This document shows, one piece after another, positions 2,293 to 59,906 of a stretch of 64,000 nt of DNA; position 1 is the stretch's first letter; each line of letters starts with the position of its first letter. The notes under the pieces were generated by a model. That model was given only the letters and a program-made list of their open reading frames with translations. It searched no databases and was not told the DNA's origin. The DNA comes from Candidatus Latescibacterota bacterium (GTDB taxonomy: Bacteria > Latescibacterota > UBA2968 > UBA8231): assembly GCA_965200315.1 (NCBI GenBank), contig OZ241362.1, forward strand, positions 3,616,001-3,680,000. The letters run 5' to 3'. Both the position numbers and the translations under genes were made by a program.

Positions 2293-3698
2293 CAGGTGAT
2301 GCGGAAGTAGTCCACGAGGGCGCAGCGGCGCTGGCGGGTAAAGGTGCGCGGCGACGTCAGCCCCTCGCCCGTAGGCCCGGCGATGGAGTACGTCCCAAAG
2401 CCCTCGCCGCCCAAGCCAACCCCGGCGTAGGAAGGACCGTTCTTGACGAAAATGGTGGTATCCACGGCGCGGGCCATGTTGTGCATGTTTTCGATGTTGC
2501 GCGAATGGATCACGGCCGTGTGCCCGTAGCCGTGCTCGGAGATGACGGCCTCGCGGATGGCTTGGTCAATGCTGGGCACACGCACAATCGGCAGAAAGGG
2601 CATCATCTGCTCCTCGCGCACGAAGACATGGTTGGCGTCCGTCTCGCCAACGAGCATGCGCAGCGACGAGTCGAGCCGCAGGCCGATGCGCTCGCCCAGC
2701 ACGGCAGCGTCGCGCCCCACCAACTCGCGGTTCGCTGCGAGATGCCCGTCTGGCCCTGTGCCAAAGGCCACCTGCGCGAGGGCCTCGATCTGCCGCGCAT
2801 CGAGCTCGTACGCGTTGTATTGGACCATCTGCCGCTTGAGCTCGTCGGCAATGGAAGCGACGGCAAAGACTTGCTTCTCGCCGATGCAGAGGATGTTGTT
2901 GTCGAAGGCCCCCCCGTCGATGATGTCGCGTGCGGCCTTGGCCAAATCGGCCGTTTCATCGACGACCACGGGCGGATTGCCCGGCCCGGCGATGATGGCC
3001 TTTTTGGGGCTGCCCAGCGCGGCCTTGGCCACGCCCGGCCCGCCGGTGACCAGCAGGAGGCAGATGCCCGGGTGGTTGAACAGTTCGTTGGCCGTCTCAA
3101 TGGTCGGCGTTTCGACCGCGGTTACTAAGTTGGCCGGCCCGCCAGCCGCGCCGATGGCTTGATTGATCAAGCCCACCGCGAACATGGAGACCTTTCTACC
3201 CGCCGGATGTACGTTGAAGACGACTGAGTTGCCGGCGGCGACAATGCAAATGGCGTTGTTGACCATCGTCGGCACGGGATGCGTCGATGGAGTAACCGCG
3301 CCGATGACCCCGTAGGGAGCCATTTCGACTACGGTCAGCCCGTGATCGCCGGTCCACGAAATCGCCTCTAGGTCTTCGACGCCGGGCGTGGTGTCGGCCG
3401 CGACTTGGTGCTTGATGATCTTGTCGTCCAATCGCCCCATGCCCGTCTCGGCCAAGGCTCGCCGCGAAAACTCCTCGGCGTGGGCGTACGCTGTCTGCCG
3501 CAGGGCCTCGACGATCTTTTTGCGCTCCTCCAGCGACAAGGCGACCAACTGCTGCTGGGCGCGGGTCGCGCCTTGAACGGCCGCGTCAATCGTCGCGAAG
3601 ACCCCAGTGTCCCCGCCCTCGCTGCCACCGCTGACGACGCGCTGCACCACTTCTTCGACTATTTTGCGTACGTGTTCTTCGCTGACATTTTGGGACAC
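2292..3698 (-). CDS. CoA-acylating aldehyde dehydrogenase (EutE/PduP family) with N-terminal encapsulation peptide
   Basis: ETGMGR..DKIIK, GVIGAVTPSTHP, VTGGPGV, AGPGNPPVVVDETAD, FDNNILCIGEK, GPTGEGLTS. Confidence 0.95.
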   Translation of the reverse strand: MSQNVSEEHVRKIVEEVVQRVVSGGSEGGDTGVFATIDAAVQGATRAQQQLVALSLEERKKIVEALRQTAYAHAEEFSRRALAETGMGRLDDKIIKHQVAADTTPGVEDLEAISWTGDHGLTVVEMAPYGVIGAVTPSTHPVPTMVNNAICIVAAGNSVVFNVHPAGRKVSMFAVGLINQAIGAAGGPANLVTAVETPTIETANELFNHPGICLLLVTGGPGVAKAALGSPKKAIIAGPGNPPVVVDETADLAKAARDIIDGGAFDNNILCIGEKQVFAVASIADELKRQMVQYNAYELDARQIEALAQVAFGTGPDGHLAANRELVGRDAAVLGERIGLRLDSSLRMLVGETDANHVFVREEQMMPFLPIVRVPSIDQAIREAVISEHGYGHTAVIHSRNIENMHNMARAVDTTIFVKNGPSYAGVGLGGEGFGTYSIAGPTGEGLTSPRTFTRQRRCALVDYFRIT

Positions 3699-3838
3699 GC
3701 TTTTTTCCTCGCGTTGGATCTAAATATTTTAAGAATGGGGAAAATAGGCGGCCCCACTCTGAGCGTCAAGGTCATTTGACGGGCTGCTAGGCCTGCCTTA
3801 AGGTTTGTGCAAGTGCTGGAAAAACAAAGGAGAAAGAC

Positions 3839-4642
3839 ATGCGCATCATCCGCTTTATCGACGCTGACGACGCCGTCCGGTGGGGCCTCAAAGCCGAGGG
3901 CGGCCAAGCCTCCGTTCTCGCCGGCGATATCTTCGCCGAACTAGTGCCGACCGGCGAACAAGTGTCCGTCAAAAGACTGCTCGCTCCGCTGGCCCCGACC
4001 AACATTTTCTGCATTGGGCTAAACTACCGAGAGCACGCGGCCGAATCCGGCCTCGAACCGCCCGAGCAGCCCGTCGTCTTTGCCAAGCCCACGAGCGCGG
4101 TCTGCGGCCCGGGCGACCCGATTTTGCTGCCAGCCTGCTGCCGCCGCGGCCCGGAAGTTGACTACGAGTGCGAGCTCGCGGTGGTAATCGGCAAGGCCGC
4201 CCGCAATGTGGCGCGGGCCGACGCCCTCAGCTACGTGCTCGGATATACGTGCGCCAACGACGTCTCGGCCCGCAAGTGGCAGCTCCACGGCGGCGGCGGC
4301 CAGTGGATCCGCGGCAAGGGCTTTGACACCTTTTGCCCTTTGGGACCGGTGCTGGTCACAGCCGACGAAATCCCCGACCCGCAAACCCTCGGCATCCGCA
4401 CGATCCTCAACGGCGCGACCATGCAGGACCACACCACCGGCGACATGATCTTCACGGTCGCCGAACTGATCGAATTCCTCAGCCAAGATACGACCTTGCT
4501 GCCGGGCACGGTCATCCTCACCGGCACTCCGCAGGGCGTGGGTTTTGCGCGCAAACCTCCCGTGTGGCTCGCAGCCGGCGACGAGGTCATCGTCGAAATA
4601 GATCAGATCGGCCAATTGCAAAACCCGGTGGAAGCGGCCTAG
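3839..4642 (+). CDS. Fumarylacetoacetate hydrolase family protein
   Basis: CIGLNYREH, VDYECELAVVIG, NDVSAR, KGFDTFCPLGP, TGTPQGVG. Confidence 0.93.
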   Translation: MRIIRFIDADDAVRWGLKAEGGQASVLAGDIFAELVPTGEQVSVKRLLAPLAPTNIFCIGLNYREHAAESGLEPPEQPVVFAKPTSAVCGPGDPILLPACCRRGPEVDYECELAVVIGKAARNVARADALSYVLGYTCANDVSARKWQLHGGGGQWIRGKGFDTFCPLGPVLVTADEIPDPQTLGIRTILNGATMQDHTTGDMIFTVAELIEFLSQDTTLLPGTVILTGTPQGVGFARKPPVWLAAGDEVIVEIDQIGQLQNPVEAA

Positions 4643-54402: not shown

Positions 54403-56046
54403 ATGCGCTCTCTGTACCCCCTCGCTATCACTATCGCCCTCGTGGCCTGCTCGCAGGAAAAAAATGCGCCCGTAGCGCGAGTCGATGAAGTGCCTATCTC
54501 AGGAGAGAGCCTGCGCTCTTTTGTCGAAAAGATGCCCGTAGGTTTGCGCCACCCCGAAGGCGGCGACGCGGCCCGGCGTCAGTACGTGCAATCGCTCATC
54601 GATCGCCAGCTAATCCTCAAAGAGGCCATAGCCCACGGGCTGGACACGCTGCGCTCGGTAAAACGCGCCGTTGATGAGGCTGTGGATGCGCGCGTCATCG
54701 CCCTGTACCGGGCACGCAACATAACCTCTCAGGTGCAAGTACCCGAAGAGGATGTGCGCCGCGTCTTTACCGAGGAAGGCTACCACCGCGAGCGCAAGCT
54801 CAACGCAATTTTGGTCCACACCCGCGCTGAAATCGAAGCGGCTGTGGCCGCGCTCGACGCCGGTCAACCCTTTACCGAGGTGGCCCGCTCCCACTCGCTC
54901 GACAAACGCTCGGCTGAACAGGGCGGCGAGTTGGGCTTTATTGGCCGCGAGGCCGCGCCCAGCCTGCATATCCCGGCCGAGGTCTTCAACACGCTGCCCT
55001 TGGCGGAAATATCTGCTCCTTTGCGCGCTGGCCGCAGTTGGCACATCGTCCGCTTCACCGAAGACCGCGACACGCCCTACGAGCGCTACCGGCCCCTCAT
55101 CGAGGAGCAGCTATTCAGAGAGCGTCTAGCCCAAGTTGAAGCCGAGCACTTTGAATCGCTCCGTGCGGCCGCCGAGGCAGCCCTCGACCGCGATGGACTG
55201 CAACTCATGCTCAGCGCGGCCCAGCGAGAAGACGGCGCACTGCTCGACACCTGTACTGCGCCGCTCTACACCTTTGCTGAGGGGCAAGCCACAGTCGCCG
55301 CGGCTTACAAGGCCCTGCGGCGGCTCAATGCCCAGCGCAGCCTCAAAGACAGTGCGCGTGCGAGCACCTCGCTAGACCGGCTGGTATTGCGGCCCCTCCT
55401 CCAGCGGCGCGCCGCCCGCGAACAGGACCTATACGACGACCTGGATGTCCAACGGCTGGCCAAGAGGGCCTACCAAGACGCGCTGCTCAACGCCGTGCGC
55501 AAGCGCTTCGCAGCCATCGAAATGCTCTCCGACGCCGAGGTATGGTCCTACTACGACAGCCATCCCGACATGTTTTATCACGAAGAATCCGTCGAGGTCG
55601 AAGAGCTGCTCGCGTCCAGCCCGGCCGAGGCCCAAGGGCTGAGCGATCAACTTGCTGCTGGCGCGAGTTTTGCCGATCTCGCCGACCGCAGTGTGCGCGC
55701 CCAAGCCGTCCAATCGCAAGCGCGCTTCCACTTCCATCCGCGCGACGAAAAGCTCTATCCGCGCCTAGTCCCGGCCATCTATGAGGCGGAACCCGGCCAG
55801 CTCGTCGGGCCGATTCGGGTGCGCGACGGGTACTCTATTTTCCGCGTCCAAGGACGCAATCCCGGCCGGGTCGAACCGTACGAGCAGGTCCAGCGCCGCG
55901 CCCGCGCTCTGCTGAGACGCGAGCGGGAAAACGCGGCCTTCACCAGCTTCGTCCAAGACTTGCGCCAGCGCTATCAGAGCCGAGTCGAGATCGACGAGCG
56001 CGCCCTCAAGGCCGCCCTGCCGGATTCGCTGGTCCAAGGCACCTGA
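54403..56046 (+). CDS. Lipoprotein PpiC-type peptidyl-prolyl isomerase/chaperone, two rotamase-like domains
   Basis: LVAC lipobox; F.EVAR.HSLD..SAEQGGELG; second AGASFADLA...GPI...GYSIFRV. Confidence 0.85.
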   Translation: MRSLYPLAITIALVACSQEKNAPVARVDEVPISGESLRSFVEKMPVGLRHPEGGDAARRQYVQSLIDRQLILKEAIAHGLDTLRSVKRAVDEAVDARVIALYRARNITSQVQVPEEDVRRVFTEEGYHRERKLNAILVHTRAEIEAAVAALDAGQPFTEVARSHSLDKRSAEQGGELGFIGREAAPSLHIPAEVFNTLPLAEISAPLRAGRSWHIVRFTEDRDTPYERYRPLIEEQLFRERLAQVEAEHFESLRAAAEAALDRDGLQLMLSAAQREDGALLDTCTAPLYTFAEGQATVAAAYKALRRLNAQRSLKDSARASTSLDRLVLRPLLQRRAAREQDLYDDLDVQRLAKRAYQDALLNAVRKRFAAIEMLSDAEVWSYYDSHPDMFYHEESVEVEELLASSPAEAQGLSDQLAAGASFADLADRSVRAQAVQSQARFHFHPRDEKLYPRLVPAIYEAEPGQLVGPIRVRDGYSIFRVQGRNPGRVEPYEQVQRRARALLRRERENAAFTSFVQDLRQRYQSRVEIDERALKAALPDSLVQGT

Positions 56047-56049
56047 GTG

Positions 56050-57618
56050 ATGACCGCCCGCCTGCTTCGACTTGAGCTCAGCCGAAAATTGCTGATTCTG
56101 GGCGCAATCGCCTGCGCCGACCAACCTTCGGCTGAGCTCAGGTCGAAGCCCGACCCGCAAGACGCGGCGCGCCCCGAAGAAGCCCGCCGCTTGCTCCAGC
56201 GCGGTACGCTCTTCTTACAACAAGATCGGCCTGAACGCGCCTTAGCGGCACTTGAGCAAGCCGTAGCGCTCGATTCCGCGTCGAGCACCGCCCATTTTCA
56301 GAAGGGGCTAGCCCACGTGCGGCTCGACCAGCCCGCACTCGCCATTGCGGTTTTTGAACGCGCTTTGGCCCTGACGCCCGACGACTCGACTGAGCTCGCC
56401 GAAGTCCGGCCCCGCGCTCACTTTGCCCTTGCCGCGGTGCTGCGCGACCAGCACCGCTACCTAGAGGCCGCAAGCCATCTAGAGCAGGCCATCGCCCTCG
56501 CGCCCGAGCGCGCCAAATACCACTTCTATCTAGGCGAGGTGCGCCGCGCCACGGGTGATTTTGCGGGCGCGCTCGCGGCCTTCAACCGCACCATCGAACT
56601 CGCACCCGACGGCTCGACTGAGCTCGCCGAAGTCCACCTTGAAGCCCGCTACTACCACAGCGACCTGCTCGTGCGCAATCAGCAATTGTCCCAAGCGCGC
56701 ACGGGTTTTGCCGACCTGCTCGCCCGCGACCCCAACCACATTCAAGGCGGCTTAGGTCTAGGCGGCTTACTCATCCGCCTCGGCGAACCCACAGCAGCCA
56801 TTCCCGTGCTCCAGCGCGTCGCCGCGACCGACCCTCACAACCCCGCTCCCCACTACCTGCTGGCCCAAGCCTACGCCGAGTGCGACCGACCCGCCGATGC
56901 CCGCGATGCACAGGGCCGCTTCCAGCAGTTGAGCGCAGCCGAACGCCACCTCAATCAGGGCAACATCTACATTCGCCAACGCGCGTGGGACAAGGCGATC
57001 GACTCCCTGAAGCGCGCCCTCTCCAGCGACTCTACTTCGGTGGAAATTCGCCTGCGCCTCGCCACCGTGTACGCACAGCAAAAGCGCTTCGCCGACGCCC
57101 GCGCCATGCTGGAGCAAGTCCTCGCCCGCAACCCCGACGGCTCGACTGAGCTCGCCGAAGTCCACCGCGACGCCTACATCATGCTGGGCGACCTGTACTT
57201 GTACGAGGGTGTGCTCAAAGAAGCCAACGCGCACTTCGTCCGCGCCGTGGCGATTGATCCCGACTCCTTTGCCGCCGCCTATGGCTTGGGCCGCACGAAC
57301 TTCAAAAGCGGTGACTTTGCCGGAGCCGTTGCCGCGTTGCGCCAAGCCCTCGCCCGCAATCCCGACCACCGCGACGCCCACTACGTCCTCGGGCTGGCCT
57401 ATGTCCGCCGAGCTAACTACCGAGATGCCCACACCCATTTCGCCCGTAGCATTGCCCTCGACCCAGACCACGCGGAATCGCACTACGGGCTGGCGCTGAT
57501 CCTCCTGCAGCAAGGACAACGGGAAAAAGCGCGGCAAGCCCTGCAAAAGGTGCTTGCCCTCGCCCCGGATCACCAACGCGCCCGGGCCAAGCTAGGCGAG
57601 CTGGACCAAGCACCGTGA
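56050..57618 (+). CDS. TPR-repeat lipoprotein carrying five in-frame 24-bp insertions
   Basis: TPR repeats; STELAEV three times; AIAC lipobox. Confidence 0.88.
   Translation: MTARLLRLELSRKLLILGAIACADQPSAELRSKPDPQDAARPEEARRLLQRGTLFLQQDRPERALAALEQAVALDSASSTAHFQKGLAHVRLDQPALAIAVFERALALTPDDSTELAEVRPRAHFALAAVLRDQHRYLEAASHLEQAIALAPERAKYHFYLGEVRRATGDFAGALAAFNRTIELAPDGSTELAEVHLEARYYHSDLLVRNQQLSQARTGFADLLARDPNHIQGGLGLGGLLIRLGEPTAAIPVLQRVAATDPHNPAPHYLLAQAYAECDRPADARDAQGRFQQLSAAERHLNQGNIYIRQRAWDKAIDSLKRALSSDSTSVEIRLRLATVYAQQKRFADARAMLEQVLARNPDGSTELAEVHRDAYIMLGDLYLYEGVLKEANAHFVRAVAIDPDSFAAAYGLGRTNFKSGDFAGAVAALRQALARNPDHRDAHYVLGLAYVRRANYRDAHTHFARSIALDPDHAESHYGLALILLQQGQREKARQALQKVLALAPDHQRARAKLGELDQAP
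56064..56087. repeat. 24-bp palindromic element, subtype B
   Basis: GCTTCGACTTGAGCTCAGCCGAAA. Confidence 0.75.
56126..56149. repeat. 24-bp palindromic element, subtype B, opposite orientation
   Basis: CTTCGGCTGAGCTCAGGTCGAAGC; its reverse complement matches 56064-56087 at 22 of 24 positions. Confidence 0.75.
56383..56406 (+). repeat. 24-bp element, subtype A (DSTELAEV)
   Basis: GACTCGACTGAGCTCGCCGAAGTC after CCCGAC. Confidence 0.88.
56611..56634 (+). repeat. 24-bp element, subtype A (GSTELAEV)
   Basis: GGCTCGACTGAGCTCGCCGAAGTC after CCCGAC. Confidence 0.9.
57139..57162 (+). repeat. 24-bp element, subtype A (GSTELAEV)
   Basis: GGCTCGACTGAGCTCGCCGAAGTC after CCCGAC; empty counterpart at 57351-57378. 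Confidence 0.9.
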
Positions 57619-59906
57619 GCCGCCGCTTCCGCGTCCTGTACTTGGCCAGCCTTTGCATCGGCTGCCAAGCCCCGCCCGAAGCCGAAAGCGATCGCGTCTA
57701 TGCCAAGGCCCTGAGCCTGCTGCACCAAGGGCAGTTCTCAGATTCCGAGGCCCTCTTCCGGCGCGTCGTCAGCTTGGCACCCGACAGCACGATTGCCCAG
57801 ATCCGCCTTGGCGAAGCCCTGCTCCGCCAAGGCCGGCGGCAGCGTGCGGCCCGCCTCCTCGACGAGCTGCCCGCGCCAGCGCACCAGCGGCCAGAAGCCC
57901 GCCTCCTCGAAGCGCGGCTCCTCGCCTTTGGCGGTTTTGCCCGCGAGGCCGAACTCGCCGTCAATGAAATCCTCGACCAACACCCCAACTCGCTCGATGG
58001 CCGCCTGCTGCTGGCTGAATTGTATTTGCAGGCCGCTGCCACCATGAACCTCGAGCGCGCCACGGCCCTGTGCAGCGAAGCACTATCCGCCCAACCCCAG
58101 CGCCGCGACGCACATTACCTGTTGCTCCAAGCCACGCTGCGCCTCGGCCGCTTTCCCGCAGCCTTGGAACGCAGCCGCTCGTTACTCGACGCCTATCCAA
58201 ACGATGGCCATGCCTATCTCTTGGCCGGTACCGCGGCCTTCTGGGCAGGAGACGACCGCGCCCGGCCTTGGCTCGAAGAAGCGGTCGATCTGTTGGAGTC
58301 AATAGATCGCCTAGAGGCCCTGTGGCTGCTCAAGCTGACCCACGAGCGGCAGGGCGAAGATGCACCGGCATTGCTGCCGCGCTATCGCTTTCCCCGGCGC
58401 GCCTCAGTGCCTGCAACAACCGACTTGCGCTTTGTCGATGTGGCCACGCACGTCGGCGTGGCCAAGAAAGATCGCGGCCGCGGCAGTGCTTGGCTCGACT
58501 TTGACGGCGATGGCGACTTCGATCTCTTCAGCGTGGGCATCCAAGCCGAACATTCGCTCTACCGCAACGATGGCGGCCAATTTCGCGATGTCGCCCAAGC
58601 AACCGGGCTAGCCGACGCGCGCGGCGGTTGGGCGGCGGCGAGCGCGGACTTTGACAACGACGGGGACGACGACCTGTTTGTCAGCCGCGACGCCTGGGAG
58701 GGCCGGGCACCCAACTCACTGTACCGCAACGACTCGGGTGCCTTCATCGACAGCGGGCGCGCGGGCGGCGTGGCCGACTCCAGCGACAGCTTTACGGCGG
58801 CTTGGCTCGACTTCGACGCCGACGGGTACCTCGATTTGTATGTGGCCAACGGCGTCACCGGTACGGGCGCGGCAAACGCCCTTCTGCACAACCAGCAAAA
58901 CGGCGCGTTCCGCAACGTGGCGGCGGCCGCTGCGGTCGCCGACTCAGGCCAGACCATTGGCACGGCCGCTGGCGACTTCGACGGCGATGGCCGCACCGAC
59001 CTGTACGCGGTCAACATCGGCCAGCGCAACCGCCTCTTTCGCAACCTCGGCGACGGCACCTTTGCCGATGTGGCCGAGCGCGCCGGCGTCCTTTTCCCGG
59101 TGGAAGGCGGGTATGTGGCGTTCTTCTTCGACCTTGACAACGACGGGCATCTCGACCTATTTGCTTCAACTATGAGTGCCTTTCCCGATGTCCTCAACAG
59201 CATGGTCACCGGTGAGGCTATTGAGCCCAACCGGCCCTTTCTCTATCTCAACATGGGCGACGGCACGTTTGCCGACATCGCGGTCGCTGCGGGACTCAAG
59301 CGTTCTTTCGGCAGCATGGGCGCGGGTCTCGGCGACATAGACAACGACGGTTTCATCGATATCTACCTCGCCAACGGCGGCCCGCAAATGGCCCGGCTCG
59401 AACCCAACGCGCTCTTCCGCAACATGGGCGACGGCACGTTTGCCGACATTACGGCCACCGCGGGCACCGGCAGCCTTGGCAAGGGCCACGGGGCCACCTT
59501 CGCCGACTTCGACCAAGACGGCGACTTGGATCTTTACGCTGGTTTGGGCGGCCACTACGACGCCGACACTTGGGACAACGCGCTCTATCGCAACGACGGC
59601 CCGGTGCAGCACTACCTGTCCATTGATCTTGTGGGCACACAGGCCAACCGCAGCGGGCTGGGTGCGCACGTTGCAGCCTTTGCCGCCGGCCGCGCCATCC
59701 GCGCCCAGCGCCAGAGCGGCTTTGGGTTCGGCAGCAGCAACGAGCCGCTCCTGCACCTCGGGTTGGGGTCGGCCACCCGCGTCGATAGCCTGCACGTACT
59801 CTGGCCCGGCCAGCCCCCACAACGCTTCTTTGACCTGCCCGTCGATTGCCGCATCCGCATCGCACAAAGCGCGGCGCACTACCAGATTCTCAGGAGGGCA
59901 CCATGA
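57615..59906 (+). CDS. TPR + FG-GAP/VCBS + ASPIC/UnbV (CRTAC1-like) lipoprotein
   Basis: CIGC lipobox-like; repeated DFDNDGDxDL; LHLGLG.ATRVD.L.V.WP. Confidence 0.9.
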   Translation: MSRRFRVLYLASLCIGCQAPPEAESDRVYAKALSLLHQGQFSDSEALFRRVVSLAPDSTIAQIRLGEALLRQGRRQRAARLLDELPAPAHQRPEARLLEARLLAFGGFAREAELAVNEILDQHPNSLDGRLLLAELYLQAAATMNLERATALCSEALSAQPQRRDAHYLLLQATLRLGRFPAALERSRSLLDAYPNDGHAYLLAGTAAFWAGDDRARPWLEEAVDLLESIDRLEALWLLKLTHERQGEDAPALLPRYRFPRRASVPATTDLRFVDVATHVGVAKKDRGRGSAWLDFDGDGDFDLFSVGIQAEHSLYRNDGGQFRDVAQATGLADARGGWAAASADFDNDGDDDLFVSRDAWEGRAPNSLYRNDSGAFIDSGRAGGVADSSDSFTAAWLDFDADGYLDLYVANGVTGTGAANALLHNQQNGAFRNVAAAAAVADSGQTIGTAAGDFDGDGRTDLYAVNIGQRNRLFRNLGDGTFADVAERAGVLFPVEGGYVAFFFDLDNDGHLDLFASTMSAFPDVLNSMVTGEAIEPNRPFLYLNMGDGTFADIAVAAGLKRSFGSMGAGLGDIDNDGFIDIYLANGGPQMARLEPNALFRNMGDGTFADITATAGTGSLGKGHGATFADFDQDGDLDLYAGLGGHYDADTWDNALYRNDGPVQHYLSIDLVGTQANRSGLGAHVAAFAAGRAIRAQRQSGFGFGSSNEPLLHLGLGSATRVDSLHVLWPGQPPQRFFDLPVDCRIRIAQSAAHYQILRRAP

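Follow-up and report, generated by a model that had tools for sequence, protein, structure and literature searches.

The insert-bearing TPR gene

The stretch of DNA analysed here, referred to throughout as the window, covers 64,000 nucleotides (nt) of a Candidatus Latescibacterota genome (contig OZ241362.1) and contains a gene for a tetratricopeptide repeat (TPR) lipoprotein-like protein that is interrupted, in frame, by copies of a 24-nt sequence, which is probably an ultra-short mobile element. The genome, designated G000, is a single contig of 5.36 Mb on which the window spans G000:C1:3616001-3680000. The host gene occupies the open reading frame (ORF) 56047–57618 on the + strand, with its ATG at 56050, and encodes 522 residues from that codon, including five inserts of eight residues each. 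Its product has a lipoprotein-like signal peptide and at least eight TPR repeats (Pfam TPR_2, E 1e-65, eight stretches) and is the single member of its exact-sequence cluster.

Three of the inserts are copies of the same 24-mer, here termed type 2, and all lie on the + strand: S1 (GACTCGACTGAGCTCGCCGAAGTC, 56383–56406), which starts with GAC, reads DSTELAEV, and follows P32–D33 of a TPR; and S2 (56611–56634) and S3 (57139–57162), which share the sequence GGCTCGACTGAGCTCGCCGAAGTC, start with GGC, and read GSTELAEV. Each adjoins CCCGAC on its 5′ side and C on its 3′ side. A sequence-only reading of this DNA had picked out these three copies together with their flanks, and a search of the window for G(G/A)CTCGACTGAGCTCGCCGAAGTC with up to three mismatches bears it out, matching on the + strand at these positions only and not at all in 100 shuffles. 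The same reading pointed to an unoccupied paralogous site, and this is found at 57351–57378 on the + strand: cgcccgcaatcccgac|caccgcgacgcc (CCCGAC|CAC), with the insertion point between 57366 and 57367 and flanks much like those of S3. It is empty in all 22 aligned orthologues.

The host gene conforms to the TPR family, in that its 34-residue repeats match Pfam TPR models and the type-2 inserts fall at the inter-repeat turn. In the Pfam register, repeat unit 476–509 corresponds to positions 1–34 of the TPR model and ends in P-D-H; the junction PD^H (codons CCC GAC^CAC) lies between positions 33 and 34, within that turn. The 24-mer had also been described as stop-free as read on both strands, which holds: five of its six frames are open (STELAEV, RLSSPKS, DFGELSR, TSASSVE, and LRRAQSS), the sixth reading CTC GAC TGA.

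Beyond these three copies, the host gene carries two further 24-nt inserts of a related type, both on the + strand. N1 (CTTCGACTTGAGCTCAGCCGAAAA, 56065–56088) is type-1-like and reads LRLELSRK within the signal peptide; this variant is seen again elsewhere in G000 and in relatives. N2 (CCTTCGGCTGAGCTCAGGTCGAAG, 56125–56148) is of type 1, reads PSAELRSK, and has a junction that is ambiguous by 2 nt.

Orthologous filled and empty sites

The host protein was searched against 41 genomes: G000, 24 others of its genus, and 16 further members of its class. The alignment comprises the best match from each of 22 genomes of the genus. Of the others, G008 and G022 had no match at E 1e-30 and G006 nothing beyond a paralogue at 38%; matches of 40% identity or less were left out. 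The open frame measures 483 residues in nine genomes, 485–487 in six, 491 in G003 and G014, 499 in G012, 507 in G021, 520 in G002, 523 in G000, and 524 in G020, the G000 protein amounting to 483 + 5 × 8 residues. The differences in length are exact 24-nt blocks at six sites, each filled in one to six of the 22 genomes and precisely empty in the others. N1 is filled in G000 only, the remaining 21 orthologues showing a 24-nt gap; N2 in G000, in G002, and, as a variant, in G007, all others being empty; S1 in G000, G002, G003, G012, G021, and G020, leaving 16 empty; S2 in G000, G012, G014, G021, and G020; S3 in G000 and G002; and a C-terminal site in G002 only.

On the TPR gene tree, G000 is sister to G010, a genome without any insert. 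The minimum number of changes is five for S1, four for S2, three for N2, and two for S3, indicating homoplasy. That the S1-filled genomes form one clade is rejected by an approximately unbiased (AU) test (p 0.001), a result that is indicative only, the group having been named after the tree was seen. Sliding comparison places G000 nearest to G010 along most of the gene, including the flanks of S1 and S3, at which G010 is empty; over kept columns 480–660, starting at S2, it is instead nearest to G014, which is filled at S2. Homologous exchange thus explains some of the pattern of filled and empty sites. The spread by gene conversion that the sequence-only reading had allowed for is upheld in part: gene conversion or recombination contributes, as the mosaic around S2 attests, but cannot account for new sites.

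Two genes unrelated to the TPR gene show the same kind of presence and absence. In PurL, a 24-nt unit in reverse orientation is present in 9 of 29 genomes and seamlessly absent from 16 ingroup genomes and from G024; at this site, three outgroup genomes show four residues of unrelated sequence, and in G012 and G022 the copy itself carries a nested 27-nt type-3 unit. In the pyrroloquinoline quinone (PQQ) dehydrogenase, the unit is found in one of 25 genomes, namely G000, when best matches are compared. Alignments of filled with empty alleles in all three genes are seamless, without duplication beyond one ambiguous C.

Copies across the genome and sister types

Across the G000 genome, the 22-nt core of the element has 4 exact matches, 12 with up to one mismatch, 15 with up to two, and 18 with up to three, with one more at five mismatches bringing the count to 19; the reversed sequence, used as a control, gives no match up to four mismatches. 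Sixteen of the 19 copies lie within Pfam-supported ORFs of unrelated families; five reading frames and both strands are represented. Besides the TPR gene, with its three copies, these ORFs encode an MlrC-type peptidase, the PQQ dehydrogenase, PurL (formylglycinamide ribonucleotide (FGAR) amidotransferase), a GFO/IDH/MocA oxidoreductase, a C39-like peptidase, a DUF6785 protein, a MacB/FtsX permease, two further TPR proteins, an S58 peptidase, an oligopeptide ATP-binding cassette (ABC) ATPase, a TMEM260-like protein, and a DUF255 thioredoxin-like protein. The copies are single or nested, not dimers. The notion of a sequence restricted to one gene and common to all its orthologues accordingly falls away: the 24-mer is dispersed genome-wide and absent from most orthologues.

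Relative to replication, 13 copies lie on one strand and 6 on the other, three of them in one gene, and with origin and terminus that are doubtful from GC skew. The cumulative GC skew of G000 has its minimum at about 4.16 Mb and its maximum at about 0.41 Mb; either the replichores, at about 1.6 and 3.75 Mb, are very unequal or the skew signal is atypical.

Judged by their sequences, the type-2 units appear to belong to a small superfamily built around CTGAGCTC, which in this genus also includes the 24-nt type 1 and the 27-nt type 3. Type 1 (core CTTCGGCTGAGCTCAGGTCGAAGC; regex and pattern search) has 24 copies in G000 with up to two mismatches, of which 10 are exact, and type 3 has three. At one locus outside the window (L010, G000:C1:3883366), short tandem repeats come before a copy that lies within the ORF of a TPR protein; their 16-nt unit is related to the 5′ half of the element (gcttgctcgactgctc...).

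Target, nesting, and age of copies

Among 132 distinct contexts of the element, position −1 is C in 129 and position −2 is G or A in 107, while +1 is C in 71 and the next base is G in 77. From these base counts, the conserved object can be written C-23 nt-C and adds a net 24 nt. The motif CCCGAC^C, which the sequence-only reading had proposed as the target, is thus not the general one; instead the element adjoins a C, usually after a purine. Its further statement that no target is duplicated stands, with the reservation that the C on both sides leaves the junction ambiguous by one base.

Perfect flanking stems of at least 6 bp occur in 13.6% of contexts compared with 2.8% when partners are shuffled, and the unit is often found at the apex of host palindromes, among them GTAG-tagged hairpins resembling repetitive extragenic palindromic (REP) sequences, a terminator-like hairpin, and others. 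The excess at palindrome centres reflects either targeting or better survival of insertions there, and the two cannot be separated.

The element also enters copies of itself. The 24-mer is found within the 24-mer after position 8, 13, or 17—all three being purine–C in the forward unit—as well as within type-1 copies. Nested copies follow CTGAGC^ of another 24-mer or of a type-1 unit, or TTCGAC^ of a reverse-oriented type-1 unit. The stack GACTCGAC[24-mer]TGAGCTCGCCGAAGTC is present at S2 of G021 and S1 of G020; S2 holds two nested units in G021 and three in G020 (24 + 24 + 27 nt), S1 of G020 is doubly nested, and S3 of G002 contains an extra nested 15 nt. In other phyla, nesting occurs after CTCGC^ and up to three deep, reverse-oriented nesting being found there too.

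Copies differ in apparent age. Orthologous PurL copies depart from the consensus at zero to three positions, as expected for an old, drifting insert, whereas dispersed copies are often exact (16 of 30 in G014, 16 of 30 in G020, and 47 of 68 in G051). Exactness therefore points to recent copying rather than to constraint on fixed copies.

Distribution among genomes, phyla, and phages

With up to three mismatches, the core is present in 22 of the 41 genomes examined. Copy number within the genus ranges patchily from 0 to 30, and G029, which belongs to another family, has eight copies, all of its units being type 2. Type-1 and type-2 counts co-vary across the 25 genus genomes (Spearman 0.94, genomes not independent), which fits a shared trans factor or a shared history. 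The two smallest ingroup genomes, G004 and G009 (4.2 and 4.6 Mb), have no type 1, no type 2, and no TnpB, though they are placed among carriers on the TPR gene tree.

The wider scan sought the exact 22-mer in one genome per species of Bacteria and Archaea, and its figures are lower bounds. It is found on at least 120 contigs from at least about 94 assemblies, representing at least 17 named bacterial phyla and one locus in an archaeal bin; the element is thus not private to this lineage. Among the matches listed, Planctomycetota account for 46 loci, Chloroflexota for 17, Thermodesulfobacteriota and Verrucomicrobiota for 8 each, Nitrospirota for 7, and Bdellovibrionota and Latescibacterota for 6 each, with other phyla contributing fewer. 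Single matches may reflect binning errors. Loci L097 and L135, on contigs of metagenome-assembled genomes from different phyla (Bryobacteraceae and Tepidisphaeraceae), have identical flanks at the copy, which suggests a binning error in one of them. Five genomes reached through cross-phylum loci contain 158, 111, 72, 68, and 4 copies with up to two mismatches. In the genome G051 (Acidobacteriota/Terriglobia; loci L281-L287), at least seven copies of a palindromic repeat some 230 nt long each carry the 24-mer once per arm, inverted and 139 nt apart; the 24-mer thus also moves inside larger repeats.

The 22-mer is present in nine viral contigs. Four ORFs on two of these match tailed-phage Pfam families (portal, large terminase, capsid, and a weak match to a Mu F-like head protein), with no Rep/HUH gene among them. 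On one contig from IMG/VR (L212:4323-4344), the copy lies in frame near the 5′ end of the ORF for the phage large terminase (2757–4472, − strand). In-frame copies are thus present in phages, which could transfer the unit from host to host.

Possible retention at the RNA level

In two contig sets from RNA libraries, no allele lacking the inserts was found, and one RNA-library contig spans the first two inserts without a gap, although DNA carry-over in the library is possible. There is thus no sign of removal at the RNA level, which argues weakly for transcripts that keep the inserts.

A probable trans-mobilised element of 24 nt

We consider it probable that the 24-mers are copies of an ultra-short, non-autonomous insertion element that is mobilised in trans, resembles REP sequences and Rickettsia palindromic elements (RPEs) in its effect, and belongs to no described family. 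What carries this reading is the precise presence and absence of 24 nt in three genes, homoplasy on the gene tree, nesting, dispersal, identity across phyla, and the drift of old copies set against the exactness of dispersed ones. The core proposal of the sequence-only reading, namely a sequence-targeted, ultra-short element that adds peptide loops to proteins and is moved in trans, finds its support in the filled and empty sites of three unrelated genes and in self-nesting.

On this proposal, the mobile unit of type 2 would be a conserved core of 23 nt with a C at either end, producing a net insertion of exactly 24 nt. A copy would enter beside a C, usually purine–C^, without target duplication beyond the ambiguous C, and insertion would favour palindrome centres, those of earlier copies included, which would lead to nesting. 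As the unit amounts to eight codons and is stop-free in five of six frames, insertions into genes can survive as 8-residue additions where the protein fold tolerates them; in the host gene, such tolerated sites would be the inter-TPR turn between P32–D33 and position 34 and the signal-peptide and linker region. Copies would be moved by a DNA breakage-and-joining activity acting in trans on unpaired DNA, and allelic exchange between co-occurring species would then redistribute filled and empty alleles. That this activity works by an HUH-like, single-strand 'peel and paste' route is possible but somewhat doubtful. The expected HUH enzyme is missing from half of the carriers, and an unrecognised enzyme or a shared housekeeping activity may take its place.

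The search for a mover

A number of findings count against such an element. The 24-mer alone, as single-stranded DNA, folds at −1.2 to −3.3 kcal/mol, no better than shuffles (z not significant), and with so weak a fold a hairpin-recognising enzyme is not obviously served. Part of the patchiness is allele exchange and not transposition, given the recombinant appearance of the S2 segment, and the copy-number correlations are overstated because related genomes are not independent. Two raw DNA runs show no insert-lacking allele at 5% or more in at least three reads, a comparison of low power at a depth of about 5–12×, which is too shallow for the inserts to be called fixed. The search for a mover, covering the families described below, identified no enzyme, and counts across the 41 genomes establish that none of Y1/RAYT, IS110, TnpB, and RVT_1 is required. 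Nor does any gene family recur in the surroundings of 129 copies, out to 8 kb: when 4,136 ORFs from these loci were clustered all against all, only ubiquitous families came out, namely sigma-54 activators and response regulators, ABC ATPases, and TPR proteins.

The first candidate is the RAYT protein, a Y1 HUH transposase, and with it the possibility that the 24-mers are classical REP sequences or REPINs moved as in gamma-proteobacterial REPtrons. The unit is indeed short, partly palindromic, high-copy, situated beside a fixed base, and free of target duplication; intragenic REPs are on record in the sections of PMC3733652 that deal with them, and Y1_Tnp matches are present in all five genomes of other phyla that were checked. 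Within the genus, however, PF01797 (Y1_Tnp/RAYT) is matched in 6 of 12 genomes with at least five copies and in 5 of 12 with none or one; the carriers G003, G006, G010, G012, G014, and G022 have no match, and the surroundings of 14 Y1 loci, out to 1.5 kb, are free of copies. The element moreover has neither a GTAG or CGTC tag nor the 5–13-bp stem of the families as PMC3733652 presents them. The sole Y1 match in G000 is a partial domain within a DUF1156 methyltransferase. We therefore hold movement by RAYT to be improbable.

That DUF1156 protein is encoded outside the window at G000:C1:705399-709082 (L290:1900-5583, + strand); it has 1228 residues, with DUF1156 at its N terminus, a match to D12-type methyltransferases, and the Y1_Tnp-like (HUH) domain at 581–656. 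Long ORFs resembling it are present in G008, G013, G026, and G040.

IS110 is matched in 5 of 12 genus genomes with at least five copies and in 3 of 12 with none or one, and has no match in G000, G010, G012, G020, G021, G022, or G029. The RAYT/HUH and IS110 partners that the sequence-only reading had suggested thus do not co-occur with the element in the genomes compared. TnpB does correlate with copy number (rho 0.63), but G000 has one weak match and G029 none, while G001 and G023 have 7–8 matches at none or one copy. TnpB was rejected as the mover, the correlation stemming mostly from the outgroup clade and from two small genomes that lack both.

Reverse transcriptases bear on a different proposal, in which target-primed synthesis by a polymerase or reverse transcriptase—of the host or accessory—would fill nicks beside a C with a copy of some short, conserved template of RNA or DNA. 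This would explain the constant sequence across phyla, and it agrees with the sharp ends of the unit, with the lack of a cis-linked gene, and with the nested partial copy of 15 nt at S3 of G002, which keeps the 3′ end. However, RVT_1 is not matched in G000, G010, G020, G008, G013, or G029, all of which are carriers. Among 39 matches in G000 with up to five mismatches, there is no template locus; nesting occurs in both orientations; and no series of 5′-truncated copies emerged from a half-site search that was swamped by ordinary coding sequence. Templated insertion is, in our estimation, as improbable as the RAYT route.

Explanations without a mobile element

A still less probable account dispenses with transposition: unequal exchange or gene conversion between TPR repeats would have multiplied one old insertion inside the gene, and homologous recombination would have carried filled alleles from species to species. 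The GGC variant common to S2 and S3 of G000, the near equality of the S3 flanks with those of the empty paralogue, and the nearness of the G000 segment at S2 to G014, which is filled there, all accord with it. They are outweighed by the 16 further copies in unrelated genes and intergenic DNA, by one insertion unique to G000 among 25 genomes, by copies nested in other repeat types, by the same 22-mer in at least 17 phyla, and by the S1 and S3 flanks of G000, which are nearest to the empty G010. As the sole explanation, intragenic copying with recombination is already contradicted.

It would be more surprising yet if the 24-mer were not selfish DNA but a selected functional motif, such as a protein binding site, an RNA signal, or a useful peptide. 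Its extreme conservation across phyla has precedents in conserved operators and partition sites. Orthologous copies drift, however; the unit is read in five frames and is also intergenic; nesting would destroy a binding site; an Rfam scan of window positions 55000–58500 gave no match at E up to 10; and congeners have anywhere from 0 to 30 copies.

An adapter, chimera, or assembly artefact might be suspected where an identical short string recurs in many metagenome assemblies, but this is next to impossible here, since the element is not tied to one sequencing or assembly technology, occupies identical orthologous codons, in frame, in species whose genomes were assembled independently, in single-contig and fragmented assemblies alike, is present in raw reads and in contigs of other runs, and in its old copies carries point changes.

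Significance of the element

With the trans-mobilised element as the preferred reading, there is a substantial chance that this small palindromic intragenic repeat represents a new class of mobile DNA. A fuller version of that idea, which we put forward tentatively, is of an undescribed class of mobile DNA whose most successful member would be the 24-mer, a gene-less unit present in at least 17 phyla and in phages. It would be inserted seamlessly at C, in DNA that is unpaired or at the centre of a palindrome, its own centre included, and would owe its movement to an enzyme family not yet recognised or to DNA processing of a housekeeping kind common to these hosts; proteins, core enzymes such as PurL among them, would gain 8-residue loops as a by-product. 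No paper giving the sequence of the element, its peptides, or a description of it was found in the searchable literature, with supplementary files, subscription journals, and repeat databases outside the search. Among mobile DNAs, the element is a candidate for the smallest so far observed. If truly mobile, it would lie at about the lower size limit of a transposable unit, its 24 nt of recognition plus cargo being the minimal substrate of its mover; and the occurrence of the same sequence across phyla without a linked gene raises the testable question of which shared activity copies it. It is also a natural means by which housekeeping and repeat proteins can acquire small, in-frame insertions, a way for proteins to evolve that has until now been documented mainly in Rickettsia. 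At a practical level, such units break short-read assemblies—contigs of other runs end at copies—and create spurious differences between orthologues.

Comparison with known systems

RPEs are the nearest parallel for in-frame insertion: in the portions of PMC10969869 and PMC3733652 devoted to them, they are non-coding repeats that lie in frame in functional genes, add peptide, and have no known dedicated transposase. The 24-mer shares the in-frame insertion and the existence of orthologues without the insert, as seen in the TPR gene, PurL, and the PQQ dehydrogenase. RPEs are, however, roughly 100–150 bp in length with a conserved encoded peptide, and are confined to Rickettsia, the small RPE-4 and RPE-6 being CGTC-tagged stem-loops, so far as those portions describe them. 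The 24-mer, by contrast, is 24 nt long, untagged, weakly folded, read in five frames, self-nesting, and unchanged in Latescibacterota and at least 16 other phyla.

REP sequences and REPINs, as outlined in the excerpts available, are similar in size (20–40 bp), have partial dyad symmetry and high copy number, and are sometimes intragenic, and CGTC REPs are likewise without an associated transposase gene, according to the corresponding part of PMC3733652. The 24-mer differs in having neither the GTAG/CGTC tag nor a stem of 8–9 bp with a loop of 4–5 nt. REPs and REPINs are mostly extragenic and often form inverted dimers, whereas in G000 16 of 19 copies are in genes and all are single or nested. 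The repeat-flanked RAYT gene of the REPtron and co-occurrence with RAYT are both lacking.

Miniature inverted-repeat transposable elements, or MITEs, are also non-autonomous, undergo bursts of copy number, and are sometimes intragenic, as the relevant section of PMC10969869 sets out. They possess terminal inverted repeats and target-site duplications and extend over tens to hundreds of base pairs, whereas the 24-mer has 24 nt and no duplication beyond the one ambiguous C.

Single-strand transposition of the IS200/IS605 type inserts DNA 3′ of a motif that is short and fixed, duplicates no target, leaves seamless empty sites, and prefers unpairable DNA. The 24-mer is similar to mini-elements of this kind in lying 3′ of a fixed base (C at −1 in 129 of 132 contexts, with a purine at −2 in 107), in the lack of duplication, and in its seamless empty sites. 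A bias towards the lagging-strand template is a further trait of such mini-elements; the copies in G000, whose origin is doubtful, split 13 to 6 between strands. IS200/IS605-type elements, however, have two subterminal hairpins, are far longer, and need the Y1 transposase TnpA; the 24-mer has one weak fold in 24 nt, and half of its carriers have no Y1 match. So far as tested, the element lacks the defining features of the REP–RAYT, RPE, MITE, and IS200/IS605 mini-element families. In its manner of insertion, it resembles single-strand HUH transposition: entry beside a fixed base is seamless, as are the empty sites, and unpairable DNA is favoured.

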